Shown: piece after piece, positions 16,844 through 45,207 of the stretch | Numbering within the stretch: the stretch's first letter is position 1 | How the letters are laid out: each line of letters starts with the position of its first letter | From: Salinispira sp. | GTDB taxonomy: Bacteria; Spirochaetota; Spirochaetia; DSM-27196; Salinispiraceae | Length of the DNA stretch: 64,000 nt | Assembly: GCA_965226555.1 (NCBI GenBank) | Contig: CBDDDG010000002.1 | Span: forward strand, 97,298-161,297 | Direction: 5' to 3' | Program-made: the position numbers and the translations under genes | The notes under the pieces: model-generated | The model's input: the letters and a program-made list of their open reading frames with translations, nothing else | The model's database searches: none | Told to the model about the DNA's origin: nothing

Positions 16844-16902
16844 TAACAAAGTTTTGCATTGGAAAATTGTGCTTGCACAATTTCCAGTAGCAAAAGTTTC
16901 TA
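16844..16902. repeat. TA-flanked nested-hairpin dispersed repeat
   Basis: TAACAAAGTTTTGC-ATTGGAAAATTGTGC-TT-GCACAATTTCCAGTA-GCAAAAGTTTCTA. Confidence 0.8.
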
Positions 16903-19120: not shown

Positions 19121-19250
19121 TAGAAACTTTTGCATTGGAAAATTGCGCTTGCGCAATTTCCAGTAGCAAAAGTTTCCGATCTGGAATGCTTTCTTTGTGC
19201 TTAGCATTCTCCTATTTTATAGAAAGTTTTGCATTTTGCAAAACTTTCTA
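19121..19250. repeat. Two copies of the dispersed hairpin family (nested 19121-19176; minimal 19220-19250)
   Basis: TAGAAAGTTTTGC-ATTTT-GCAAAACTTTCTA is a perfect palindrome around a 5-nt loop. Confidence 0.8.
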
Positions 19251-20101: not shown

Positions 20102-20458
20102 TTAATGCGATCCGTTCCGCACTGTCCGCATTTCCTCATCGCTCAGCCCGGTAATTCTCTGAACAGCCTCGGTCGACAACCCTTCCAAAAACATACTGCG
20201 GGCGTTTTTTCTCCGCTCCTCAATATGCCCCTCCGCGCGACCTGTCTGTAGTCCTTCCTGCCGACCTGTTTGCAATCCTGTCTGTAGGCCTTCCTGCCGA
20301 CCTTCTTCACGGCCTTCCTGCCGACCTGTTTGCAATCCTTCCTGCCGACCTGTCTGAAGTCCTGTCTGCAATCCTTCTTCACGACCTGTCCGCAGTCCTT
20401 CCTGCCGACCCATTTCCGCAATGTGCGCTCTGAATGTTTCCGCATTCATTCTGAACAT
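20102..20458 (-). CDS. Putative nested small Rpn protein (Rpn-S), copy A
   Basis: In-frame TAAGGAGGT-AGCGAAA-ATG inside the gene. Confidence 0.65.
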   Translation of the reverse strand: MFRMNAETFRAHIAEMGRQEGLRTGREEGLQTGLQTGRQEGLQTGRQEGREEGRQEGLQTGLQTGRQEGLQTGRAEGHIEERRKNARSMFLEGLSTEAVQRITGLSDEEMRTVRNGSH

Positions 20459-21226
20459 TTTCGCTACCTCCTTACCTCTCGGTTCTTTTGTTCTTTCTAA
20501 CTGGTTCATTAACGTGTCAAAGTCTATAACAATTCCGAACATTGAATCTACCACGCCGACAAATTCCTCTATCAGCTCCAGCGATTCTTCATTCAGCATT
20601 TCTGCTATCGCGTTCTCCACCTTCCGAATGTCCCAATCCGTATTCAGCAGATTTTTCGAGTACAGATCAAGGTACATAACAGCCGCAAACATTCTTCCCC
20701 GCTGCTGCAACTGCTCCGCAGAATAATCGTTCTCACTTATCAGATCGTAGGGAAAGGGGGCAAGATACTGCGGGAATTCCCGCTTCCGTTGCTCTCTGAC
20801 ATTCCCGGGCACCTTCCATTTTCTCGTACCATTATAGAATACAATGGGCAGAAATACCAACTCGCAGTCATCGGGAATTGCGCCGGAGCGGTGAATGTTC
20901 CGATAGAGCAGATTCGTATATTCCGACATGCGGAGGGGCATGTCTTTGTCCACTCCGGACTGATGCTCAAGGAGCACATAGATAGCAACATCTCCCGTGT
21001 GATCCCGACTCCTGATTTTGCAGACAATGTCGGCCATCCGTGTTTTTGCATGGTCAATGAAAAAGGTACCGTTTTCAATGGTTATGTCCTCGGTTCGCAA
21101 TTTTTTCGTCCATGCGCCTCCGACAAAGCGTTGAAGAAATTGGAGCATTATTGCGGGTTGGAACAGCAGGGAGCGGTAGCCTTGGTCGTAGGGAACGGGG
21201 GCGGGTTTTTCTTTGAAATCGATCAT
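20102..21226 (-). CDS. Rpn/YhgA-family PD-(D/E)XK nuclease (copy A)
   Basis: YDQGYRSL, MADIV, LLEHQS, MPLRM, PIVFYNG..KW, C-terminal G(R/L)(Q/E)(E/T) tetrapeptide repeats; AGGAGG SD before ATG 21226. Confidence 0.88.
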   Translation of the reverse strand: MIDFKEKPAPVPYDQGYRSLLFQPAIMLQFLQRFVGGAWTKKLRTEDITIENGTFFIDHAKTRMADIVCKIRSRDHTGDVAIYVLLEHQSGVDKDMPLRMSEYTNLLYRNIHRSGAIPDDCELVFLPIVFYNGTRKWKVPGNVREQRKREFPQYLAPFPYDLISENDYSAEQLQQRGRMFAAVMYLDLYSKNLLNTDWDIRKVENAIAEMLNEESLELIEEFVGVVDSMFGIVIDFDTLMNQLERTKEPRGKEVAKMFRMNAETFRAHIAEMGRQEGLRTGREEGLQTGLQTGRQEGLQTGRQEGREEGRQEGLQTGLQTGRQEGLQTGRAEGHIEERRKNARSMFLEGLSTEAVQRITGLSDEEMRTVRNGSH

Positions 21227-21502
21227 ATAATCCTCCTGAACGTTTCTTTCTGAATAGGGGAGCTCCCATGGCGACATGGTCCCATGGTGAATTCTCCCCT
21301 CTATATATGTGACGGGTAAAAAGTCATTTTTGATTGTGTTTTTTGAAAGAATTTTGCAAAATTTGTGAATTTTTTTCAGGGAGTCGGGAATGGGGGGCTG
21401 GTATGCTCTGTATCGATACGATCTATGCTCCCGGGAACAATGCTCAGCGCGAGGTTTTTGTAAAAAGTTTCTATTATTTTGAGATATTGACCTAACCCCG
21501 CC

Positions 21503-21620
21503 GCTTGGGCGAGCCGGATGCTTGGGCGAGCAGGCGTGCAACGCCGATCAACCCAGGAGGTGCAAGCCTCCGACCAGCCCGGCTGCATGGCGAGCAGCGC
21601 GGAAGCGCGACCAGCCCCCG
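21503..21620. repeat. GC-rich ~38-bp repeat cluster (REP/BIME-like)
   Basis: Variants of CCGGACGCATGGCGAGCAGGCGTGCAACGCCGACCAGC. Confidence 0.7.
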
Positions 21621-21679: not shown

Positions 21680-23220
21680 CTAATACCATGACGGAAAATT
21701 TGGTTGCACCCCATCAGTCATGGTATCCGTATCCACAGCAGCCAGGCCGGAACCCGTAAACATACCGTTTTTGGTTCCAGTGTATTTGCCATTGTCATTG
21801 AGCTTGTTGCCAGTTTCGGGCGTCCAATGTGCTTTCCACTCCTCAAGATCACCGGTAAATGCGCGTGCAAAATAGAACATAGAGCCCATAGTCGTTACCG
21901 AACTGACATCCCAACCGGAAATGTTGCCATTGAATGCGTTTGCGTTAGAGAACATAAAGCGCATATCCGTTACCGCGCTGACATTCCAACCCGAGATATT
22001 GCCATTGAATGCGCTTGCGCTATTGAACATATTGGACATATTCGTTACCGTGCTGACATCCCAACTGGAAATGTCGCCATTGAATGCAGTTTTATCCTTG
22101 AACATCTCGGACATGTCCGTTACTGCCGTGGTAACAATGTAGTTGAGATTGGCAGTATTGCCCCAAGTATCTATCCCTTCAGTTACCGCTGTTTTCAGTT
22201 CATCATTATCTTGAGGACTCAGGGTAACAGAGAACTTTTCGGTGGCAAACAGTTCGATTCCTCCGTCTGCGCCCGATACCTCATATGTTCCGGGGCTTGT
22301 ATGTGCGGTAACCATAATAATTCCGGTAGTTTCATCAACTGTCGGGAGGGCGACATCTGCGGGTGTCGTTGGGGTGGTGACCGCAGCCAAAGTAACGGTT
22401 GGATTATTCGCATTGATAATTGCGTCATCAATATCATCCGAAAGAATGACGGATACTGCCGTACCCGCGGGAACCTCTGTCGCAACAGTCGGCAGTATTG
22501 CTGTTGCGGGTTCAGACCATGAACCACCGTAAATGCCGTTGACCGCACGCACCTGCACATCGTAGCTGGCGCCGTTTGTCAGCCCCATAATGGTATCGGT
22601 GGTGGTATCGGCATCAGTTGTCCGCTGAGTAACAGCGGGAGCATCCGTCCAGAGATCAGAGGTCAGCTTATACTCCAGTTCATATCCGGTAATGTCGCTG
22701 CCTTCATTGTATGGAGCTGTCCATTTCACCGTCAGACGACCATTACCGAGTATAACCAGTATTGCAGGAGCGGCAGCAGTTATGACCAGTTCACCTGTTG
22801 CGGATTCAGACCAGGGGCCATTGCCAATGTCATTGACAGCACGTACCTGTACGCGGTAACTGATTTTTTTGTGTGTTAGTGGGGTTATGGTGTAGCTGGT
22901 GTGTGTTCCGATGTCGGAGATAATTTCCGTCCATGTGGTTCCGCCGTCTGAGCTATGGCGCAGATGATAGGCGGTAATTTCGCCATCGCCGCTTTTTTCC
23001 GGCGGAATCCAGCTAACCGTTAGTTGATCATTCCCCGCTACAAGGGTTGGAGCAGCCATGGTGCCCGGCGTCATTGGTTCCGGTTCCGTCATTGGATCGG
23101 GTTTTGGCGTTGGATCGGGGTCCATGTCCATCACTGGACATCCGGCAAGCAGCGCAATGAACATTGCGCATAATAGGAAGAGGGTTACCCCCCCTTTTTT
23201 TTCAATAACGTAGTTCGCAT
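21680..23220 (-). CDS. FN3 x2 + DUF285/BspA-repeat surface lipoprotein; signal peptide out of frame at an A8G7 tract
   Basis: GAGGT SD + ATG 23220; lipobox LLAGC; FN3 YxVxVRAVN; FNGDISxWDVS repeats. One extra base at 23188-23202 joins the start to the ORF. Confidence 0.8.
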
Positions 23221-23408
23221 AATTTTATACCTCTTTTTTATGCTATAATAGAAAGTTTTGCATTTTGCAAAATTTTTTAATAGTTTTCATCGGCATTTCC
23301 GACTGTTCCTGCGCCTATCGGTACAATATATCAGTTCGAAAAGCCGTATTATAAGTTATATCACATTGGGAAAGCACAATCAAGAAAAAAAGCAGTCCAC
23401 GGATTTTC

Positions 23409-23530
23409 CCGGACGCATGGCGAGCAGGCGTGCAACGCCGACCAGCCCGGACGCATGGCGAGCAGGCGTGCAACGCCGACCAGCCCGGACGCATGGGCGA
23501 GCAGGCGCGCAGCGCCGACCAGCCCCCCGC
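23409..23530. repeat. 38-bp GC-rich tandem repeat x3
   Basis: Units start at 23409, 23447 and 23485. Confidence 0.85.
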
Positions 23531-23587
23531 GCCTGCCTGAGTTGAATTGCCGCTTCTCAATAGTTACTGCGGGCTATAAAACTGCTC

Positions 23588-23833
23588 CTAATATGCTAAT
23601 GACCATGACGGCTTATTATTGTACACGCCGGAATTCCAAAACGTAAGGAGTTGGGCTCCGGTGTATTTGCCATCATCGAGCGTCAAATGATACTTCCATT
23701 CCTCAAGGTCTCTATTGAATGCTCTTGCGTTAAAGAACATATAGTTCATATTCGTTACCACGCTGACATCCCAACCGGAAATATCGCCATTGAATACGAT
23801 TGCTCCATAGAACATATAGAATATATATTGCAT
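23588..23833 (-). pseudogene. Orphan C-terminal cassette of the DUF285 lipoprotein family
   Basis: FNGDISGWDVS...DLEEW...GKYTG...PSW followed by the family's conserved 3' element; no signal peptide or FN3. Confidence 0.75.
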
Positions 23834-23897
23834 AATACCGCAGAAGGCAGGATGCGGCGCACGTATGGTTGAATTCGCCTACACACTTTATTTAAAA

Positions 23898-23926
23898 TTG
23901 ACATTTCCCCCTAAATGCGTTATCCT
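23898..23926 (+). promoter_or_regulatory. sigma70-type promoter of the 944-aa lipoprotein gene
   Basis: TTGACA-17 nt-TATCCT; TAAGGAG SD before ATG 24042. Confidence 0.7.
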
Positions 23927-24041
23927 GTATTACAGGGACTTTCTGAAACTGTTATACTACCCGTTGTTACACGATGGGTGGGAGCAGTCGGGAATTAAAT
24001 TACCTGAGAAAAAATACTATTTAAGCATAAGGAGTTAAATT

Positions 24042-26876
24042 ATGCATATTACATTACCTAAAGGGAACACCTTTTTCGTATTCTGCGCAATTTTTATTAT
24101 ATTGATTGCTGGATGTCCAACACCGGTAGATATTGCAACCCCGCCGGGTACCATGGTTGCTCCAACCCTCACAGCAGGGAACGGGCAATTAACGGTTGCA
24201 TGGACTGAGCCAACTGATGGCGGCAGCGCCATTACCGCGTATCACCTTCGCCATAGCGCGGACGGCGGTACCAACTGGTCGGACATTATTAATGTCGCCG
24301 CTTCAGCCACAAGCAGCATCATCCCTGAACTGAGCAACGGTACCCCGTACAGTGTACAGGTTCGTGCCGTAAACGCGCGGGGAGAAGGCAAATGGTCGGA
24401 ATCGAGCGCAGAAGCAGTTCCTGTTGCTGTTCCCATGGCGCCGACTGGTCTCGCTCTCACAGTGGGAAATGGAAAACTTACCGCAACATGGGCGGAATTA
24501 GAGCCGACCGACACTGGCGGCAGCCCTATCCTTCATTATGCAGTGGAACACCGCGAACCAGAAGCCGAGTGGCCGCAAACTCCCAGTGCATCCACCGCCG
24601 ATGCCGGCACCCTGACCCTCGACATCCCCAACCTGAAAAACGGCACCGAGTACGAAGTACGGGTATACGCTGTCAATGATCAGGGAGATGGAAACCGATC
24701 AGAAATTGCAGCGGCAACCCCTGCCACCGTTCCTGATAAGCCGAACGCTCCAACCCTCACAGCGAGAAATGAGCAACTTACCGCAACATGGACTGCGCCG
24801 GACAATGGCGGAAACGCTATTATTCGGTATGAAGTGCAGTATCGCACCTCCAGCCCGCAAGGACAGTGGACGACTTCTTCGTCTGCCGATTCTGATGTTA
24901 CTGATACAAGCCACACCGTCACAGGACTAACAAACGGTACCACGTACGAAGTACAGGTGCGCGCCGTGAATTCGGTGGCTGAGGATGCGGGAAATGGCCC
25001 GGGAGTTGGCGCATGGTCAACATCATCTGCCTCCGCAACCCCTGTTGACGTTCCCAAGGCGCCGACTGGTCTCGCTCTCACAGTGGGAAATGGGAAGCTT
25101 ACTGCATCATGGACTGCGCCGACCGACACTGGCGGCAGCGACATTACCGGGTATGCAGTGCAATATCGCACAGGCGGCGGAGCATGGTCTGCGCCAATTA
25201 GCGCTGGTACAAGCACAAACCACGAAATCCCCAACCTGAAAAACGGCACCGAGTACGAAGTACGGGTATACGCTGTCAATGATCAGGGAGATGGAAACCG
25301 ATCAGAAATTGCCGCGGCAACCCCTGCCACCGTTCCTGCTAAGCCGAACGCTCCAACCCTCACAGTAGGAGATAGGCAACTTACCGCAACATGGACTGCG
25401 CCGGACAATGGCGGAAACGCTATTATTCGGTATGAAGTGCAGTATCGCACCTCCAGCCCGCAAGGACAGTGGACGACTTCTTCGTCTGCCGATTCTGATG
25501 TTACTGATACAAGCCACACCGTCACAGGACTAACAAACGGTACCACGTACGAAGTACAGGTGCGCGCCGTGAATTCAGTGGCTGAGGATGCGGGAGTTGG
25601 CGCATGGTCAACATCTGCGACAGAAACCCCCGATGTTGCTCCCACTGCGCCGACCGCTCTCACGCTTGACGTAGGGAATAAGCGGCTTGTCGTTAACTGG
25701 GCTGCGCCGAGCGACAACGGAGGTACGCCCATTATCAGGTATGAACTGGAATATAAGCTGATCTCTGGCAGCTGGGATACTTCTAACGATGTTACTCAGC
25801 CTGTAATTGTCGCTGGTACCACCACACATACCATTGATATGCTGACGAACGGCAACACCTACAATGTACGGGTTCGTGCCGTCAACGGAGTCAATAATGT
25901 GATCAACGAGGGCGTCTGGTTAACGTCAACAGCAATGCTGCCGGCTTCGGTTGTTGATGCGAAAGCGGGAAGTTCTCGGGATGAGGCAGACGTTTCCCAG
26001 GGTACGGCAGCGTCCGTTATCCTTTCGGCTAATATTGATGTCCTTATTGCCGATGCTGTGAATCCAACCATTACCTTAACTCCGGTAACCACCCCAATCC
26101 CATATGTGCCACCTACGCCCGGCGTGCCCAACTCGGGCTCGACGAATAATGTAACGCAAGATGCCACCCTGCCGACGGTTAATGCGCGTACCGGACTTAT
26201 TACGGTTACCGCAAGTACAACGGCAGGAACCTATACAGTATCTGGTGAAGACGGAAGCGGAGCCGAGGTGTTTCCCACCAAGTATTTCTATGTTATCGTG
26301 AGTCCCTCAACTAAAGCTGCCCTTGACACAGCGGTACGTACGGGAATAGAAATCTGGGGCAATGCTGCCGATCTCAACTACATTATTACCACGGGAGTAA
26401 CGGATATTCATTCGATTTTCAATCGCGGAACCAAAACAACGGGGGGTGGAGTTGCCACAACGGCATTCAATGGCGATATCTCCAAATGGGATACTACATC
26501 GGTTACGAATATGTCCTATTTGTTCAAGGCCGCAATCGCATTCAATGGCGATATCTCGGGCTGGGATGTCAGTTCGGTAGAGAATATGGACAGTATGTTC
26601 AATGGTGCAAACGCATTCAATGGCGATATCTCTGGGTGGGATGTCAGTTCGGTTGCGAATATGAGCAATATGTTCAATTCTGCACTCTCATTTAAGGGTA
26701 ATCTTAACGACTGGGCCTATAATAACTCGGTTGACCCTGCAGTTACATGGAAGACTACTGATGGTGGTGGTAAATGGGATAATGGCACATATACCGGAAC
26801 CAAAACAGGTATGTTTACGTTTACTGGTACTAGTACCGCCGTACCGGGAACCTTTACGATTCCGACATGGTATTAG
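24042..26876 (+). CDS. Multi-FN3 + DUF285/BspA-repeat surface lipoprotein
   Basis: Lipobox LIAGC; six FN3-like repeats with YxVxV(R/Y)AVN; FNGDISGWDVS repeats; ends in PTWY. Confidence 0.85.
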   Translation: MHITLPKGNTFFVFCAIFIILIAGCPTPVDIATPPGTMVAPTLTAGNGQLTVAWTEPTDGGSAITAYHLRHSADGGTNWSDIINVAASATSSIIPELSNGTPYSVQVRAVNARGEGKWSESSAEAVPVAVPMAPTGLALTVGNGKLTATWAELEPTDTGGSPILHYAVEHREPEAEWPQTPSASTADAGTLTLDIPNLKNGTEYEVRVYAVNDQGDGNRSEIAAATPATVPDKPNAPTLTARNEQLTATWTAPDNGGNAIIRYEVQYRTSSPQGQWTTSSSADSDVTDTSHTVTGLTNGTTYEVQVRAVNSVAEDAGNGPGVGAWSTSSASATPVDVPKAPTGLALTVGNGKLTASWTAPTDTGGSDITGYAVQYRTGGGAWSAPISAGTSTNHEIPNLKNGTEYEVRVYAVNDQGDGNRSEIAAATPATVPAKPNAPTLTVGDRQLTATWTAPDNGGNAIIRYEVQYRTSSPQGQWTTSSSADSDVTDTSHTVTGLTNGTTYEVQVRAVNSVAEDAGVGAWSTSATETPDVAPTAPTALTLDVGNKRLVVNWAAPSDNGGTPIIRYELEYKLISGSWDTSNDVTQPVIVAGTTTHTIDMLTNGNTYNVRVRAVNGVNNVINEGVWLTSTAMLPASVVDAKAGSSRDEADVSQGTAASVILSANIDVLIADAVNPTITLTPVTTPIPYVPPTPGVPNSGSTNNVTQDATLPTVNARTGLITVTASTTAGTYTVSGEDGSGAEVFPTKYFYVIVSPSTKAALDTAVRTGIEIWGNAADLNYIITTGVTDIHSIFNRGTKTTGGGVATTAFNGDISKWDTTSVTNMSYLFKAAIAFNGDISGWDVSSVENMDSMFNGANAFNGDISGWDVSSVANMSNMFNSALSFKGNLNDWAYNNSVDPAVTWKTTDGGGKWDNGTYTGTKTGMFTFTGTSTAVPGTFTIPTWY
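24625..25595 (+). repeat. Near-identical intragenic duplication (~370 bp, offset 603 bp)
   Basis: ATCCCCAACCTGAAAAACGGCACC...GAGGATGCGGGA at ~24625 and ~25228. Confidence 0.85.
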
Positions 26877-26959
26877 TAGTTTCATAACCTAACCCGCAGG
26901 GCCATCAAAGCCCTGCGATTTTTAGCTCCGGCGGGCGGGCTGGTCGGAGGCTTGTGCCT

Positions 26960-27065
26960 CCTGGGCTGGTCGGCGTTGCACGCCTGCTCGCCCGGGCATC
27001 CGGTTCGCCCATGCGTCTGTTGCTGAGACGGTGAGCTGATACGGTGTTGCTCGCCCATGCGTCTG
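26960..27065. repeat. GC-rich repeat cluster (reverse orientation)
   Basis: GGGCTGGTCGGCGTTGCACGCCTGCTCGCC. Confidence 0.7.
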
Positions 27066-27484
27066 GAACAGATTAAATTAAACAGGAGTTGCAGCGCGAC
27101 CCGCGTTGTAGCTCCTGTCTGCATAAACTCTCGCGCCAGATCCTGAACTGCCTGTTCATCATGCTCGGATGTTTCCGGGAACATACCCTTCTAAAAAAAT
27201 AATTACAAAATTTCTCATTGTATCATTCACCATTCATATTTGACCTGTCTATATGGTATGGGGAAAAATTATATGAAAAAATCATCCCACAGCAAAGGCC
27301 ATATCCACGACATAGCCTTCAAGATCGCCTACTACAGAACCCCCCGTATGATTCTCGACCTGCTACGGCTGTTCTGTGAGGATACAACGCTTGCCAAGCT
27401 GGATCTGGACAAAAAGCAGTTGATATGGCGTTCCGATGAAAAACGATATACATCAACTGCGTTGTGGTATATAATGCGAGACAA

Positions 27485-27587
27485 TAACAAAGTTTTTCCT
27501 AAAGGAAAAACTTTCTATACCGTGAGAGAATCAAGAGTATAGATGAGAGAATCCTCATTTGAAAATTGTGCAGAGCACAATTTTCAG
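27485..27587 (+). mobile_element. 103-nt multi-hairpin insert in Rpn copy B
   Basis: Absent from copy C at RDN|EM; same insert at the same site in copy D. Confidence 0.88.
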
Positions 27588-27748
27588 TGAAATGGATGCT
27601 GAGGGGCTGAAAGAGATTGCGCAGCTCCTGAACGGTTTGTCTTCACAAGACTTTACTGATCTAGCAGAGAGTGTGCTAGGATATATCAAAGATATAGATC
27701 CAAAACTGTATGAACAGTTTGAGAAAATTGACAGGGAACTGTTCCCTA

Positions 27749-27878
27749 GACAAAGTTTTGCCACAGGCAAAACTTTCTACAAAATGAGAGAATGCCAAGC
27801 GCAACGAGGCATGCCAAATGTGAAACTTTTGCTACTGGAAATTGTGCTCTGCACAATTTTCCAATGCAAAAGTTTCAG
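27749..27878 (+). mobile_element. ~130-nt multi-hairpin insert in Rpn copy B, ending just before the internal SD
   Basis: Absent from copies C and D at LFP|EGENSM; shares terminal hairpins with the 103-nt inserts. Confidence 0.82.
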
Positions 27879-28349
27879 TAGGAGAAAACAGTATGCGGAC
27901 ATATAATATTACCAACGCCTTCGTCAGGGAAGGGATTGCGAAGGGCCGGATTGAGGGTCTTGAGCAGGGAATGGAGAAAGGAATGGAGAAAGGAATGGAG
28001 AAAGGAATGGAGAAAGGAATGGAGAGAGGCATTCGAGAAACGGCTCGCAGTATGTTTTCCAAAGGATTTTCAGCCCATGACATTCAGGATGTTACCGGGC
28101 TGAGCGATGAGGAAATGCGGACAGTGCGGAACGGATCGCATTAATTGGCGCCGAACGGCCTATTCGCCAACTGTGGCAGGTAATTGATGTTCTCAGGTAT
28201 GCGCCGTACACGCCACGGTCAGCATAAGGATATTGAAGCACGGTTAAAATCTGGAGTATAGTAGCGGAATACTATTACCAAAGTTTTGCAAAATGCAAAA
28301 GTTTCTATTACTATAGTCGATTATCCTTTTATCATTTGAAGAAGGCGCC

Positions 28350-32349: not shown

Positions 32350-33411
32350 TTAATGCGATCCGTTCCGCAATGTCCGCATTTCCTCATCGCTCAGCCCGGT
32401 AATTCTCTGAACAGCCTCGGTCGACAACCCTTCCAAAAACATACTGCGAGCCGTTTCTCGAATGCCTTCTTCACGACCTGTCCGCAGTCCTTCCTGCCTG
32501 CCCTTTGTGATACCCTGCTCAAGACCTTCAACACGGCCTTTCAGAATACCTTTCTCCATTCCTTTCAGAATACCTTTCTCCATTCCCTGCTCAAGACCCT
32601 CAATCCGGCCCTTCGCAATACCTTCCCTGACGAAGGCGTTGGTAATATTATATGTCCTCATACTGTTTTCTCCTTCAGGATATAATTTCCTGTCAATTTT
32701 CTCAAACTGTTCATACAGTCCCAGATCCTTCATATAACCCAGCACACTCTCTGCCAGATCAGTAAAGTCTTGTGAAGACAGACCGTTCAGGAGCTGCGCA
32801 ACCTCTTTCAGCCCCTCAGCATCCATCTCATTGTCTCTCATTATATACCACAACGCAGTCGATGTATATCGTTTTCCATCGAAGCGCCATGCCAACTGCT
32901 TCTTTGTCATTCTACAAAGATCGCGCACAATGTACGACACTTTCACCCTGACATCCACTGTGCCTTCGGTAAGGGATTCGGAAGCAGCATTTCCATGCGA
33001 ACTATAAAATGTGAGTGGGAGGTTCCATTCCTTTTTTCCGTGGTAAAGCAGAAGGATATAGATAGCATCATTTTCATTGTACACATTGCTGTTTCTGAGG
33101 GCATATTGATAGTCATCGATCTGTGTGAGAACGTGTTTGTGCTGGTAGCTTTTATGTTCAATAATAAATAGGGCCTTCCGATCTGGGGCTGACAGGAAGG
33201 GGGCGCTGACAACGAGATCGCAGTGAAGATTCTTTTTTCCTGAAATGTAGCTGGGGGTTTCAATGCGGATTTTGTCCAGATCCAGCTTGGTAAGAGTCGT
33301 ATCCTCACAGAACAGCCGCAGTAGGTCGAGAATCATACGGGGGGTTCTGTAGTATGCGATCTTGAAGGCTATGTCGTGGATGTGGCCTGTGCTGTGGGAT
33401 GATTTTTTCAT
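32350..33411 (-). CDS. Rpn/YhgA-family nuclease (copy C, intact); nested AAGGAG+ATG at 32661
   Basis: HDIAFK, CDLVV, IIEHKS, LLYHG..EW, G(M/I/R)(E/L)KG repeats; AGGAGG SD. Confidence 0.88.
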   Translation of the reverse strand: MKKSSHSTGHIHDIAFKIAYYRTPRMILDLLRLFCEDTTLTKLDLDKIRIETPSYISGKKNLHCDLVVSAPFLSAPDRKALFIIEHKSYQHKHVLTQIDDYQYALRNSNVYNENDAIYILLLYHGKKEWNLPLTFYSSHGNAASESLTEGTVDVRVKVSYIVRDLCRMTKKQLAWRFDGKRYTSTALWYIMRDNEMDAEGLKEVAQLLNGLSSQDFTDLAESVLGYMKDLGLYEQFEKIDRKLYPEGENSMRTYNITNAFVREGIAKGRIEGLEQGMEKGILKGMEKGILKGRVEGLEQGITKGRQEGLRTGREEGIRETARSMFLEGLSTEAVQRITGLSDEEMRTLRNGSH

Positions 33412-33808: not shown

Positions 33809-35539
33809 CTAATACCATGACGGAAACGGTGTCTTTCCCTTTTCGGTGCCCACGCCGGAACCCGCGAACATACTTCCTTTGTTTCCGGTATATTTGCCAT
33901 TGGTATCAAGCGTCCAATGTTCCCCCCACTCCTCAAGATTTTGATTAAATGCCCTTGCGTTACTGAACATACTGGATATATTCGTTACCAAACTGACATC
34001 CCAGCCAGAGATATTGGCATTGAAGAAACTTGCGTTAAGGAACATAAAGGACATATTCGTTACCGAACTGACATCCCAACCGGAGATATCGCCATTGAAT
34101 GGGCTGAGAACGAACATATTTGATATATTCGTTACCGAACTGACATCCCAACCGGAGATATCGCCATTGAATACGGTTGCGTTATAGAATGTATATGACA
34201 TATTCGTTACCGAGCTGACATCCCAGCCGGAGATATCGCCATTGAATGTAGTTGCACTATAGAATATATTGGTCATATTCGTTACCGAGCTGACATCCCA
34301 GCCGGAGATATCGCCATTGAATGAGCTATTGTTAGTGAAGACACTGCTCATATCCGTTACTGCCGTGGTAATAATGTAGTTGAGATCGGCAGTTGGTCCC
34401 CATGCAGTTATCCCCGTAGCTACCGCGGCGTCCAGTTCATCGTTACCGCCATCAGTATTAGCAGCACCAGCACTACCATCACCATCGTGAGGACTCACGG
34501 TAACGTAGAAATATTCGGCAAACAGGAATGTAGCTGTATCTCCGGTTCCAGTAGTGCCATATACCAGATATATTCCTGCCGTTGTACCTGCGGTAACCGT
34601 AACAAGTCCGGTACTTTCATTAACTGTCGGCGGGGTGACCGTTCCGGGCGGAGTTACGGTGGTTACGGTAATGTTTCCTGAGTCATCGACCCCGTGAGTG
34701 CCCGTGGTCACATAAACGCTGAGGTTCTCACTGGCAATAATAACATTAACAGCATCTGAAAGGCTTACAACCCTTGATGCACCCGCAGGAGTCTGTGTCC
34801 TTTGCGGCCTTCCTATTGCAAATGGAGACCATGGTCCAGCGCCAACCGCATTGACGGCGCGCGCCTGTACTCCGTAGGGGATCCCGTTTGTCAGTCCCGT
34901 AATGCTGTGGTATGTACCGGTGATACCTTCGGTAATTTCCGTCCATGCTCCGATGCCTATGCGATATCGCAGCTCATACCCGGTAACAGCACTGCCGCCG
35001 TTATCTTCCGGCGCAGTCCATGTAGCAACGAGCTGCTCAGGGCCCGCATAAAGGGTTGGAGCATCCATTGTACCCGGCGCGGCAGGGGGCACCACAGTTG
35101 GTGGCGCAATAGGGCGTGCTGTGGACGATGCCGACCACGTACCCGCACCTCCCGCGTTGACGGCGCGCACCTGCACAGCATAACTGAGGCCGTTTGTCAG
35201 ATCGGTAATGGTATGGCTTGTGCCGGTAATACCGAAGGTAATCTCCGTCCAGCTCTCGCTGCCGAATTCACCATAGCGCAGGTTGTACGCGGTAATGGCG
35301 TTGCCATCTTTTTTGTCTACCTCATCCTCATTCCATATAGCGGCGAGCTCAGCCCATGAGGCAGTAATCTGTCCGTCTCCCGCTACGAGTGCTGGCGCAA
35401 ACATTGTAGGGGGAGCATCCGGCGTAGGGGGAGCATCCGGCGTAGGGGGAGCATCCGGCATGGGACACCCCGCAATCAACATAATAACCATTGCACAGAA
35501 AGTGAAAAGAGTTATTCCTCTGTATGACATAATTTTCAT
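33809..35539 (-). CDS. FN3 x2 + DUF285/BspA-repeat surface lipoprotein
   Basis: Lipobox LIAGC, PDAPPT x3, FN3 repeats, five FNG/ADISGWDVS-type repeats, ends in PSWY. Confidence 0.85.
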   Translation of the reverse strand: MKIMSYRGITLFTFCAMVIMLIAGCPMPDAPPTPDAPPTPDAPPTMFAPALVAGDGQITASWAELAAIWNEDEVDKKDGNAITAYNLRYGEFGSESWTEITFGITGTSHTITDLTNGLSYAVQVRAVNAGGAGTWSASSTARPIAPPTVVPPAAPGTMDAPTLYAGPEQLVATWTAPEDNGGSAVTGYELRYRIGIGAWTEITEGITGTYHSITGLTNGIPYGVQARAVNAVGAGPWSPFAIGRPQRTQTPAGASRVVSLSDAVNVIIASENLSVYVTTGTHGVDDSGNITVTTVTPPGTVTPPTVNESTGLVTVTAGTTAGIYLVYGTTGTGDTATFLFAEYFYVTVSPHDGDGSAGAANTDGGNDELDAAVATGITAWGPTADLNYIITTAVTDMSSVFTNNSSFNGDISGWDVSSVTNMTNIFYSATTFNGDISGWDVSSVTNMSYTFYNATVFNGDISGWDVSSVTNISNMFVLSPFNGDISGWDVSSVTNMSFMFLNASFFNANISGWDVSLVTNISSMFSNARAFNQNLEEWGEHWTLDTNGKYTGNKGSMFAGSGVGTEKGKTPFPSWY

Positions 35540-41669: not shown

Positions 41670-43091
41670 TTATTCTGTCTCTGTCTTAGGCGGACGGGCG
41701 CGGGTCGCTAAGTTATAGGCAAAGATTTTTCGATTAGAATTATTGCCCACCCACATTGTTGTTTCATTCGAATAGATGCCAAAAGCGCTAGTATTCCCCA
41801 TAGTAGAAAGTATGTTATTGAAATCTTTTGAAGCATTGTAGGTTACCGTGATACTTCCTGCGTTATCTATTGTGTAGTCGTAGGCATAAATTTTGTTATC
41901 CTGTGCATCCGACATATACATTGTTATCCCGTTTGACCATATTGAGCGAGGGTCATTATTCCCGGCAGCAGTAAGTATGGCGGGATCGAAATCTTTTGAC
42001 ATATTGTAGGTCGCCGTGATAGCGCCTGCGGTATCTATCGTGTAGTCATAGGCATAAGTATTTTTCAATACATCCACCACCCACATTGTTGTCCCATTCG
42101 ACCATAAACCAAAAGGATTAGAAATACCACCAGTTGCGGTGAATTCTTTGTTCGTATCGCGCGCTTTGGTCTCCATGGTGTAGGCATAAATTTTGTTCGT
42201 TGAATTAATCACCCACATTGTTGTTCCATCTGACCAGATGCCAAGGGGGTTAGTATTCCCTGCAGCAGTAAGTGTGGCGGCAGTGAATTCTTTTGGTTCA
42301 TCGCGCTCCTTGGTCTCCATGGTGTAGGCATAAATGTGGTCAGCGAGACTATCCAGCACCCACATTGTTGTTCCATTCGACCAGATATCTGTGATTCTCT
42401 CATTCGCGGCAGCAAGCGTGAGAAAATCGTCTCTGTGATCTCCTAATGCATTATACCCGTCCCGATTATAGCCGTTGGCATCATAGCCATTTTGTCGGTA
42501 CCCGTCCCTGTCATATATATCTCCGGTCACCCGGTGATTACCGTCAGCATCGAAACCGTTGATGTCGTAACCATTGATGTCATAGCCTTTGGCGTTAAAG
42601 CCGTTTGCGTCATACCCCTGTTCATCATAACCATCATCGCCGTATTTCGTTCCGGTGTCGCGGTGATCGCCTTCAGTGTTAAAACCGGCTGCATTGTAGC
42701 CGTCTTTGTCGTAGCCGTCTCTATTGTATTTCGTTCCGTCACGATAATTGCCGTCAGCATTAAAGCCATTTTTGTCGTAACCCTGTTCGTCGTAGCCCTG
42801 TGGGTTGTATATCGTGTTGGTGTCTCGGTGTTTGCCGTCAGCGTTAAAACCGTCCGCGTTGTAGCCGTCTTTGTCGTAGCCGTAGAGATCGTATATCGTG
42901 CCGGTGCCGCTGTGAATGCCATCGTCAAAAAAACCGTACTGATCACAGGCGGAGAACGTGAGCATCAAGACAAAAACACAAAGGATTCCCAGCAGCAGAT
43001 GCGGACTTCGAAGATGTTTCCGGCGGTTCAGGCTCTGCGCGGGTGTCCGCACTGGTCTATTGTTACAAGTTGGAATGGAATATGAATTCAT
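41670..43091 (-). CDS. Repeat-rich lipoprotein (G[YF][DN]xxG repeats + WS[ND]GTTMWV beta-propeller-like repeats)
   Basis: Lipobox FSAC; GGAGG SD; repeats visible in the translation. Confidence 0.75.
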   Translation of the reverse strand: MNSYSIPTCNNRPVRTPAQSLNRRKHLRSPHLLLGILCVFVLMLTFSACDQYGFFDDGIHSGTGTIYDLYGYDKDGYNADGFNADGKHRDTNTIYNPQGYDEQGYDKNGFNADGNYRDGTKYNRDGYDKDGYNAAGFNTEGDHRDTGTKYGDDGYDEQGYDANGFNAKGYDINGYDINGFDADGNHRVTGDIYDRDGYRQNGYDANGYNRDGYNALGDHRDDFLTLAAANERITDIWSNGTTMWVLDSLADHIYAYTMETKERDEPKEFTAATLTAAGNTNPLGIWSDGTTMWVINSTNKIYAYTMETKARDTNKEFTATGGISNPFGLWSNGTTMWVVDVLKNTYAYDYTIDTAGAITATYNMSKDFDPAILTAAGNNDPRSIWSNGITMYMSDAQDNKIYAYDYTIDNAGSITVTYNASKDFNNILSTMGNTSAFGIYSNETTMWVGNNSNRKIFAYNLATRARPPKTETE

Positions 43092-43304
43092 ATCGTTTTA
43101 TTCCTCCATCAATTTTATATTCAATACTATATCATCGGACATTGAACATTGTCAAATGTTCGGCTATATGGGAAGCTCCGGAAACTCGGGTATTTCACAC
43201 TGCATCACGGAAATAGCGTTTTCTCAGGTTCCACTATACGCCATTATCATCGAATAACAATTTTATGTCAAACCCTGCTGTCATTTTTATGAGATACTAA
43301 TATT

Positions 43305-43425
43305 GACCAGCCCGGCTGCATGGCGAGCAGGCGTGCAACGCCGACCAGCCCGGGACGCATGGGCGAGCAGGTGCGGAGTACCGACCAGCCCCGGACGCAT
43401 GGGCGAGCCGGATGCTTGGTCGAGC
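43305..43425. repeat. GC-rich repeat cluster
   Basis: GACCAGCCCGG...GCATGGCGAGCAGGCGTGCAACGCC x3. Confidence 0.75.
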
Positions 43426-43770
43426 GGCGATAATTAATGCGATCCGTTCCGCACTGTCCGCATTTCCTCATCGCTCAGCCCGGTAATTCTCTGAACAGCC
43501 TCGGTCGACAACCCTTCCAAAAACATACTGCGGGCGTTTTTTCTCCGCTCCTCAATATGCCCCTCAGCGCGACCTGTTTGCAATCCTTCCTGCCGACCTT
43601 TCAGAATGCCTTTCTCCATTCCTTTCAGAATGCCTTTCTCCATTCCCTTCGCAATGCCTTCCCTTACGAAGGCGTTGGTCATGTTATATGTCCTCATACT
43701 GTTTTCTCCTTCAGGGAACAGTTCCCTGTTAATTTTCTCAAACTGTTCATACAGTCCCAGATCCTTCATA

Positions 43771-43873
43771 CCGAAAATTGTGCTCCGCACAATTTTCTAA
43801 TCTGGATTCTCTCATCTCTATTCGTGATTCTCTCAAGATATAGAAAGTTTTGCCTGTGGCAAAACTTTTGTTA
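43771..43873 (-). mobile_element. 103-nt multi-hairpin insert (second site in copy D)
   Basis: Absent from copy C at VLGY|MKDL. Confidence 0.88.
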
Positions 43874-43969
43874 TAGCCCAGCACACTCTCTGCTAGATCA
43901 GTAAAGTCTTGTGATGACAGACCGTTCAGGAGCTGCGCAATCTCTTTCAGCCCCTCAGCATCCATCTCA

Positions 43970-44072
43970 CTGAAAATTGTGCTCTGCACAATTTTCAAAT
44001 GAGGATTCTCTCATCTATACTCTTGATTCTCTCAAGGTATAGAAAGTTTTTCCTAAAGGAAAAACTTTGTTA
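43970..44072 (-). mobile_element. 103-nt multi-hairpin insert (first site in copy D)
   Basis: Absent from copy C at RDN|EM. Confidence 0.88.
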
Positions 44073-44823
44073 TTATCTCGCATTATATACCACAACGCAG
44101 TTGATGTATATCGTTTTCCATCGAAACGCCATGCCAACTGCTCCTTTTTCATTCTACAAAGATCGCGCACAATGTACGACACTTTCACCCTGACATCCAC
44201 CGTGCCTTCGGTAAGGGATTCGGAAGCTGGGTTTTCATGCGAACTGTAAAATGTGAGTGGGAGGTTCCATTCATTTTTTCCATGGTAGAGCAGCAGTATA
44301 TAGATAGCATCCCGTTCATTGTACACATTGCTGGTTCTGAGGGCATATTGATAGTCATCAATCTGTGTGAGAACGTGTTTGTGCAGGTAGCTTTTGTGTT
44401 CAATAATGAATAGAGCCTTCCGGTCGGGGTCTGACAGGAAGGGGGCGCTGACAACGAGATCGCAGAGAAGGTTCTTTTTTCCTGCAATGTAGCTGGGATT
44501 TTCAATGCGAATTTTGTCCATGTCCAGCTTGGCAAGAGTCGTATCCTCACAGAACAGCCACAGCAGGTCGGGAATCATCCGGGGGTTTTTGTAGGCGATC
44601 TTGAAGGCTAGGTCGTGGATGTGGCCTGTGCTGTGGGATGATTTTTTCATAAACATTCCTCCTACATCTGTGACGGAAGAAAAACGAGATATGAATGACA
44701 AAATGGGAAATTTTTCAAAAAGTTTCTATTATTTTGGGATATTACTGTTTGACCAGCCCCTGACGCATGGCGAGCAGGATGCTTGGGCGAGCAGGAGGCG
44801 CAGTTTCCGAGGGCTGCTCGGCG

Positions 44824-45207
44824 TCAAACCGGCGGCAGCTCATCATCCGAAAATAAATCGAGAGTACGTGTATCCGATTTGGATACTCTGCGTTTTTCAC
44901 ACTTTCCATGCTGCTCACGCTTTCTGCTCACATCGGCATTTTCGATGTTTCCGGTATTTCCGGGCGCAATAAAAAACTGGGCATTTTCCACTATCGGCGG
45001 CACATATACCGTTTCATCAATAAATACCCGGGCCTCGGAATAATTCAACCCGCCTTCGATAAGCTGCAAAAGCAGCCGTCCTGTTCTCTCCTGAACATCA
45101 CCCAGATGTTCTTCAAGCTTTCCCAAGTCAATAAGCTGCCGGTAAATTCGCGGAAGAAAGTCTTTTAGATGAGCCTCCGCGCTTTCGTAGTATACACCTC
45201 TCGTCAT
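44824..45207 (-). CDS. TnpV-like small protein
   Basis: HLKDFLPRIYRQLIDLGKLEEHL resembles the transposon-encoded TnpV pattern. Confidence 0.45.
   Translation of the reverse strand: MTRGVYYESAEAHLKDFLPRIYRQLIDLGKLEEHLGDVQERTGRLLLQLIEGGLNYSEARVFIDETVYVPPIVENAQFFIAPGNTGNIENADVSRKREQHGKCEKRRVSKSDTRTLDLFSDDELPPV

Follow-up and report, generated by a model that had tools for sequence, protein, structure and literature searches.

Probable IS5-type MITEs of a new family, whose odd duplication-free sub-lineage sits in the very large rpn family of a Salinispira genome

The hairpin-rich inserts that interrupt Rpn nuclease genes in Salinispira sp. are probably copies of a gene-less MITE of IS5 type that is scattered over the whole genome, a few of which landed in rpn genes as founder insertions and were then likely copied from paralog to paralog by gene conversion. 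The starting point was a window, i.e. the whole stretch of 64,000 nt analysed here (contig CBDDDG010000002.1, positions 97,298 to 161,297), in which a first-pass annotation had noticed inserts in two rpn copies and had proposed either a new non-autonomous mobile element repeatedly selected for silencing the toxic long form, or a spliceable or excisable switch. We take the hairpin element to be, most likely, a new MITE family of IS5 type, one odd sub-lineage of which inserts free of duplication and is lodged in a very large family of rpn genes. A literature search, made mostly on titles and abstracts, returned no description of the element or of MITE alleles in rpn genes; MITE-rich spirochaete genomes as such are noted in part of an earlier report (PMC11602168).

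The host genes have the long/short layout of Rpn, with a PF04754 core plus an internal small frame that has its own ribosome site, and the TIGR01784 score of 47.5 bits lies just below the cut-off of 52.1. Zhong et al. (10.1101/2023.05.02.539157) describe, in the sections on which we draw, a toxic long form that the small form inhibits, and the same roles are presumed here. The rpn copies of the window and their inserts are as follows, with the boundaries of D1 and D2 given in the A...GT register and the equivalent or alternative coordinates in brackets.

43434..44650, minus strand: rpn copy D (PF04754, E 3e-11), long frame broken by two inserts and ending after 211 aa
43434..43697, minus strand: small internal frame of copy D, intact, 87 aa, with a GGAG site at 43706-43709; presumed RpnS antitoxin by comparison with parts of bioRxiv 10.1101/2023.05.02.539157
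43969..44071 (43970-44072, equivalent by a one-base shift), minus strand: insert D1, 103 nt, at a shared site with 18 genome copies
44043..44068, minus strand: left hairpin of D1, two back-to-back degenerate IS5-type terminal repeats, outer arm 8/12 to the IS consensus
43972..43996, minus strand: right hairpin of D1, outer arm 9/12 to the IS consensus
43770..43872 (also given as 43771-43873), minus strand: insert D2, 103 nt, at a shared site
44082..44110, minus strand: sigma-70-like site, 10/12 match, ending 10 nt before D1, a lead only
27273..28144, plus strand: rpn copy B, with a 369-nt deletion plus two inserts
27486..27588 (also given as 27485-27587), plus strand: insert B1, 103 nt, site and lineage as D1
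27750..27879 (also given as 27749-27878), plus strand: insert B2, 130 nt, directly before the ribosome site of the small frame, right end 12/12 to the IS consensus
27893-28144, plus strand: small frame of copy B, intact, 83 aa
32350..33411, minus strand: rpn copy C, intact, 353 aa, empty at all sites and used as the reference copy

Rechecking of the window reproduced the basic description: D1, D2 and B1 measure 103 nt each and B2 130 nt at the positions first annotated, removal of D1 and D2 from copy D leaves 1011 nt, i.e. 336 aa plus stop, with the CDLVV and EHKS motifs intact, B1 and D1 occupy the same codon of copies B and D, and the boundary ambiguity is T at D1 and TA at D2. Several generalisations made from the four inserts were true of the window but did not extend to the genome. 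Lengths of 1 mod 3 are found in all four, but close paralogs carry inserts of 129 and 102 nt (0 mod 3) and of 131 nt (2 mod 3); all four lie between the nuclease core and the start of the small protein, but elsewhere one site falls inside the nuclease core, just before the catalytic EHKS. Similarly, the own target duplication of the four inserts is at most 1-2 nt, with foreign bases in the inner flank, but the family includes three intergenic relatives in the same window with perfect 5-bp duplications. Of the four stem-loops said to be shared, the folding as such is far beyond that of shuffled sequences (gene-strand z-scores of -7.9, -6.2, -7.6 and -5.3, with 0 of 200 shuffles equally stable), but the centroid structure of D2 keeps only three of the four stems.

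Other repeats and genes were observed around these loci. A second short repeat family, G+C-rich, is clustered beside rpn genes (26930-27060, 43290-43420 and 44740-44830), and surface proteins with fibronectin type III plus DUF285 domains (21680-26876 and 33809-35539), of which 106 ORFs form one similarity cluster, often adjoin rpn genes. At 41670-43091 lies a protein of 473 aa with Asp-Gly-Tyr-rich repeats that matches no Pfam family, and a similar-looking family has 18 members.

In the 2.98-Mb genome a hairpin detector returned 485 clusters, compared with 0 in a shuffled megabase. Arms at both ends are present in 458 clusters (135 single hairpins, 109 nested hairpins, 144 two-hairpin composites and 70 others), and 192 clusters are at least 85 nt long and fall at 100 unique sites. 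Two end-like arms form the palindrome of each hairpin, and two hairpins with a 45-nt linker, which in composites is one of two kinds, make up a unit of 98-130 nt. The terminal hairpins remain perfect palindromes across variants and the linkers fold weakly (z of -0.9 and -1.8); the covariance analysis proposed at first pass found no linker covariation, i.e. no real two-sided changes among variants, and the window has 0 matches to Rfam at gathering score. Thus, the structure looks like symmetry of DNA ends and not like a selected RNA fold. Members with target duplications are already present in the window:

19123..19248, minus strand: 126-nt intergenic member with perfect 5-bp duplication TACTA, ends matching the IS consensus at 11 and 12 of 12
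16847..16900, no strand assigned: nested-hairpin member, 54 nt, with perfect 5-bp duplication TATAA
23251..23277, no strand assigned: single-hairpin member, 27 nt, with perfect 5-bp duplication TAATA

Beyond one flanking base per side, 5-bp direct repeats bracket 17/62 unique composite, 23/123 single and 13/87 nested sites, against means of 0.7-0.9 in shuffles (for composite sites, mean 0.7 and maximum 3), and repeats of other lengths within 1-10 nt were in no clear excess. Moreover, a true 5-bp duplication was confirmed against empty alleles at six of the 24 testable sites. An ORF-splitting screen with a coding score placed 78 of the 100 unique long sites in non-coding and 22 in coding sequence. 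Among the coding sites, 17 fall in rpn subfamilies (10 assigned by tblastn and 7 by reading translations), 2 interrupt IS5 transposase genes, 1 lies at an rpn-IS junction, and the last 2 score weakly and carry no assignment; none lies in a recognisable housekeeping gene. DNA of D1 was found in none of 40 sampled relatives and had no plasmid match, and the lineage-A pattern had no match in the genome contigs searched. In the lineage-A linker, e.g. at 19123-19248, the left hairpin and linker start resemble by eye a rightward -35/-10 pair with a 16-base spacer, followed by AGGAG. Elements are also seen nested in the hairpin loop or linker of other elements, in the same orientation and with no duplication (G000:C13:7111, C18:67100-67330, C2:5250-5460 and C16:89843).

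A search for long elements bounded by MITE-type ends gave 10 candidate pairs, of which four enclose the same transposase:

L011:205-1544 (G000:C18:62204-63543): partner IS, a recent, ISAba23-like IS5 element

This element of 1,340 bp has the ends GAAACCTTTGCA and GAAAC(C/T)TTTGAA, its copies are 96-100% identical, and perfect 5-bp duplications are present at seven of the ten two-ended copies, with imperfect flanks at the other three; it had no close-identity match in 40 relatives. Its transposase (L011:321-1337) belongs to the IS5 family (NF033581, 228 bits against a cut-off of 140) and is 46% identical to ISAba23, and its metagenome relatives are distant (27-52% in the best segment). The ends of ISAba23 have the same first 12 bases as the partner IS, with 5-bp duplications at 4/7 flanked copies, and MITEs with such ends in four other, unrelated genomes show perfect 5-bp duplications at 18 of the 31 sites fetched, in a sample of 40 short regions picked from among the listed matches. 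The unrelated genome G041 (L266-L285) contains dozens of ~159-bp MITEs with ISAba23-type ends and 5-bp duplications. The best hairpin copies, which are of the younger lineage, match the IS end at 11-12 of 12 positions, and one right-end fragment of the IS stops in an exact MITE end; the MITE linker had no match in the IS interior. Because 12-bp ends match and 5-bp duplications occur in both, the hairpin family is, as judged from sequence comparison, most likely a MITE of this co-resident IS5 element. The first-pass proposal of a non-autonomous mobile element is thus borne out, and the ends, the 5-bp duplications and the transposase profile together name a likely partner in the IS5 family. Inserts D1, D2 and B1 agree with the IS consensus in no more than 8-9 of 12 end positions, compared with 12/12 at the right end of B2; the IS5 link of D1 and D2 is hence one of family membership and not of an own scar, since their ends reach 8-9/12 and their lineage duplicates at most 2 nt. 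As candidate partners, the other multi-copy IS families listed for the genome were rejected for unrelated ends, and two further IS5 elements, with related ends, for a poorer match. Copies of a second IS5 transposase at G000:C14:98679-99812 and C21:352660-353793 carry an in-frame 14-residue insert that leaves the frame open.

Two junction types were distinguished by comparison with empty paralogs. For 24 sites an empty paralog was available and the locus had grown by the element plus 5 nt (a wider set of 26 sites includes other net gains); here mismatches to the target by position numbered 0, 1, 1, 8 and 9 on the left and 11, 12, 2, 2 and 1 on the right, i.e. 40/96 at inner and 4/96 at outer positions (p 2e-10), so that foreign bases adjoin the element and target bases lie farther out. 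Neutral decay of duplications was rejected, as mismatches occur only next to the element. A GT-ended lineage, with A or AC as its first and GT as its last bases and a duplication of no more than 2 nt, accounts for 13 of the 26 long sites with empty alleles after one false GT call had been dropped. All four window inserts belong to it, and for this reason the first-pass remark on duplications was right for them. Perfect duplications are associated with one type of left hairpin (14/25 vs 2/22, p 0.0008). The majority of GT-ended sites for which an empty allele exists lie in rpn genes; empty alleles are visible in multi-copy genes only, and the sample is therefore biased towards rpn. The carried bases converge on a single motif across differing targets and show a weak correlation with element similarity (rho 0.10, p 0.05); target sequences are diverse, with no conserved motif. 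The idea that donor flank bases are carried along gains no support from other genomes: among 13 imperfect ISAba23-type MITEs mismatches are spread evenly over positions (6, 6, 8, 7, 6), and one ISAba23 empty site examined has an altogether different right flank. A uniform TA duplication, as for an IS630-type MITE, was also rejected, because the TA reading fits only some sites and PF13358 has no match. The first-pass annotation had pointed to IS630 or IS200/IS605/RAYT transposases with matching ends, and the genome contains no match to PF13358, PF01797 or PF01385 (0 matches in the searches for the latter two, with positive controls detected). A tyrosine-recombinase profile gave three matches in the genome.

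The rpn family is greatly expanded: 191 Rpn C-terminal hits fall into at least five subfamilies, 86 of them in long and 105 in short open frames, and Pfam rpn matches number 90 against 0-4 in 20 relatives. The 105 short-frame hits appear as many small-protein-only remnants, and expansion loci in the window are 20102-21541, 27273-28144, 32350-33411 and 43434-44650. In the close subfamily, 68 starts comprise 29 intact copies, 28 with inserts and 11 otherwise broken or cut by contig ends. Every insert in this subfamily truncates the long frame (all 28 carriers are truncated, the in-frame 129-nt insert acting by a stop), and almost all leave the small frame intact. Five sites are occupied, and at each of them the inserts have a near-identical sequence of their own; 14 combinations occur among 25 carriers (58 alignable copies), and carriers are hardly more alike than non-carriers, paralogs being ~92% identical. 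A single clade was rejected for three tested sites (AU p 1e-4, 4e-3 and 1e-48), and labels changed 14, 11 and 9 times for 15, 11 and 11 carriers, on a tree that for recombining genes is a rough guide only. Near-identical inserts at the same sites in so many combinations over non-monophyletic paralogs point to gene conversion, by which founder alleles have likely spread. Moreover, conversion from an empty paralog would restore the gene exactly, and the state would hence be reversible at the DNA level without splicing. The phrase 'repeatedly selected for silencing' thus overstated independence, as five founder events suffice for the subfamily, but sparing of the small protein finds modest support: on a map of 19 coding sites across five rpn subfamilies, which excludes leader sites before the likely start and in which two site pairs may share an origin, 0/19 lie in the last 90 codons against an expected share of 0.18-0.22 (p 0.008-0.024, or 0.014-0.036 with 17 independent sites). 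Sense orientation is found at 17 of the 19 sites (p 0.0007), which a DDE enzyme alone does not explain. Two apparent inserts inside the small frame were discarded as mis-called starts at the B2 site. In subfamilies 1, 3 and 4, insertions interrupt the gene at the codon that directly precedes the one for the catalytic glutamate, one being a different element in opposite orientation.

It is rather unlikely, though by no means negligible, that a different, duplication-free enzyme (a lost HUH/RAYT-type single-strand transposase or a blunt-cutting DDE) moved the GT-ended lineage, including the four window inserts, and that IS5 moves the younger lineage only. The foreign bases next to the element, their convergence on one motif with weak tracking of element similarity and, as features reminiscent of REPINs, the doublet-of-hairpins anatomy and the sense bias are all consistent with such an enzyme, and duplication-free IS5 relatives are known (Spy, in part of PMC4122938). 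However, Y1, IS110, TnpB, IS630 and serine-recombinase (resolvase) families have no match in the 93.5%-complete genome, flank composition gave no conserved tetranucleotide before the hairpins, inserts show no replication-strand bias genome-wide (23/52), and three of the ten IS copies are likewise imperfect at their flanks. Furthermore, the net gain is usually element plus 5 nt, as for a duplication, and carried donor flank bases are favoured for this reason. Less probable still is a second duplication-free route of the IS5-derived MITE itself, with fixed A(C)...GT ends and a preference for the rpn sense strand, in which insert alleles would serve as scarless reversible off-switches that conversion shuffles over ~190 paralogs, setting the ratio of long nuclease to small inhibitor. 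We regard it as improbable that the Rpn nuclease cuts DNA within or close to its own genes and that excised MITE copies are captured at such breaks. The concentration of GT-ended sites in rpn genes would follow, and it has been proposed that IS elements can enter pre-existing breaks and leave no duplication (PMC11708052, in part); but that concentration is subject to the sampling bias above, GT-ended insertions also interrupt another IS5 transposase gene and further MITE copies, break capture would yield neither constant ends nor sense bias, and Zhong et al., in the sections drawn on here, saw no sign of Rpn proteins transposing.

Selection might keep the inserts frequent by silencing the toxic long Rpn and at the same time sparing, or even boosting, the small antitoxin, with gene conversion tuning the toxin:antitoxin ratio across the family, and we hold this as a tentative reading, short of an even chance. 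The last-90-codon result and the sense orientation suggest it, as do the clustering of five sites near the internal small-frame start, the intact small frames downstream of an element (32/33) and the position of D1, 10 nt after the best promoter-like site, which is also the best such match in intact copy C. Yet small frames without an upstream element are equally intact (36/39), one insert parts the ribosome site of a small frame from its start, 29 of the 68 close copies remain intact, drift plus conversion can yield intermediate frequencies, promoter-like sites are near chance (5 found vs 2.0 expected, and 3 vs 1.7), and toxicity of Rpn here is presumed. A tiny intron-like switch, precisely removed from RNA or excised from DNA on demand, is hardly credible. 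Removal does restore the frame exactly, orientation is mostly sense, and private amino-acid changes are no more frequent than expected in carriers (14 synonymous and 18 non-synonymous, against 29:43 in intact copies), but such lack of decay is equally predicted by conversion with intact paralogs, and joints that skip 103 nt, present in contigs of 4/4 sequencing runs, are explained by empty paralogs. The lack of housekeeping insertions, a common site of 12 copies in antisense and the non-covarying linker without Rfam match further argue against the switch that the first-pass annotation had envisaged. That the mosaic of inserts over paralogs is an assembly artefact seems very improbable: paralogs are ~92% identical and public short-read contigs do not span a whole rpn copy, but contigs of up to 594 kb separate tandem copies, and the D1 junction is bridged by a contig of another study (X6 record 25, 2 differences), so that, phase aside, the insertion allele is real.

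Returning to the IS5-type MITE, we suppose that the IS5 transposase would move the hairpin unit and that single hairpins may be collapse products. The window inserts would stem from an older lineage with two to three extra bases per end (A(C)...GT), which replace the inner part of the duplication. Among the routes considered, these bases could best be donor flank bases carried along and kept at insertion, a favourite that falls short of an even chance and that draws on analogy with piggyBac, whose overhangs offer a precedent (PMC7351741, in part). Inserts may persist as ~190 redundant rpn copies would tolerate them, and also because knockout of the presumably toxic long nuclease that spares the small inhibitor could be harmless or mildly favoured.

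In itself, a MITE that has its IS5 partner in the same genome is nothing unusual. Two junction types of one element family in one genome, however, provide a substrate pair for donor-flank carriage or blunt insertion by IS5. Moreover, with about half of one rpn subfamily turned off through five shared insert alleles that spare the presumed antitoxin, the genome offers a natural test of how very many toxin-antitoxin paralogs are tolerated, and the rpn expansion far above sampled relatives adds weight to this question.

Compared with known systems, the family agrees with IS5-family MITEs of the ISAba23-like clade (NF033581) in its 12-bp ends, nearly identical to those of the co-resident IS5, in the A+T-rich 5-bp duplication of both, and in being non-coding, ~100-130 nt long, mostly intergenic and dispersed in many copies. 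It differs from them in several ways: at each end two arms make up a complete palindrome, target duplications also flank single and nested hairpins, a sub-lineage has A(C)...GT ends and at most 2-nt duplication, and many copies lie in the coding sequence of one gene family. REPINs with RAYT and IS200/IS605-derived palindromic elements share the ~100-nt palindrome doublet with spacer and, with one lineage here, duplication-free insertion, and long singlets are likely collapse products there as well (PMC3337134, in part); but here no Y1 enzyme matches, the other lineage has true 5-bp duplications, and no tetranucleotide guide stands at the hairpin foot as in the IS200/IS605 definition given in part of PMC6006769. 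Carried donor bases recall piggyBac and insertion without duplication recalls the IS5-related Spy, as the portions of PMC7351741 and PMC4122938 used here describe them, with a similar chemistry conceivable in our case; both are eukaryotic elements with fixed targets, whereas targets here vary. Finally, the host genes resemble the Rpn long/short genes (PF04754) in the sections of Zhong et al. cited above in nuclease core, internal ribosome site and start, and variable four-residue repeats, but they share insert alleles across paralogs, of which those sections make no mention, and with ~190 C-terminal domains and 90 Pfam matches they stand far above the 26 copies that those sections give as a high example.
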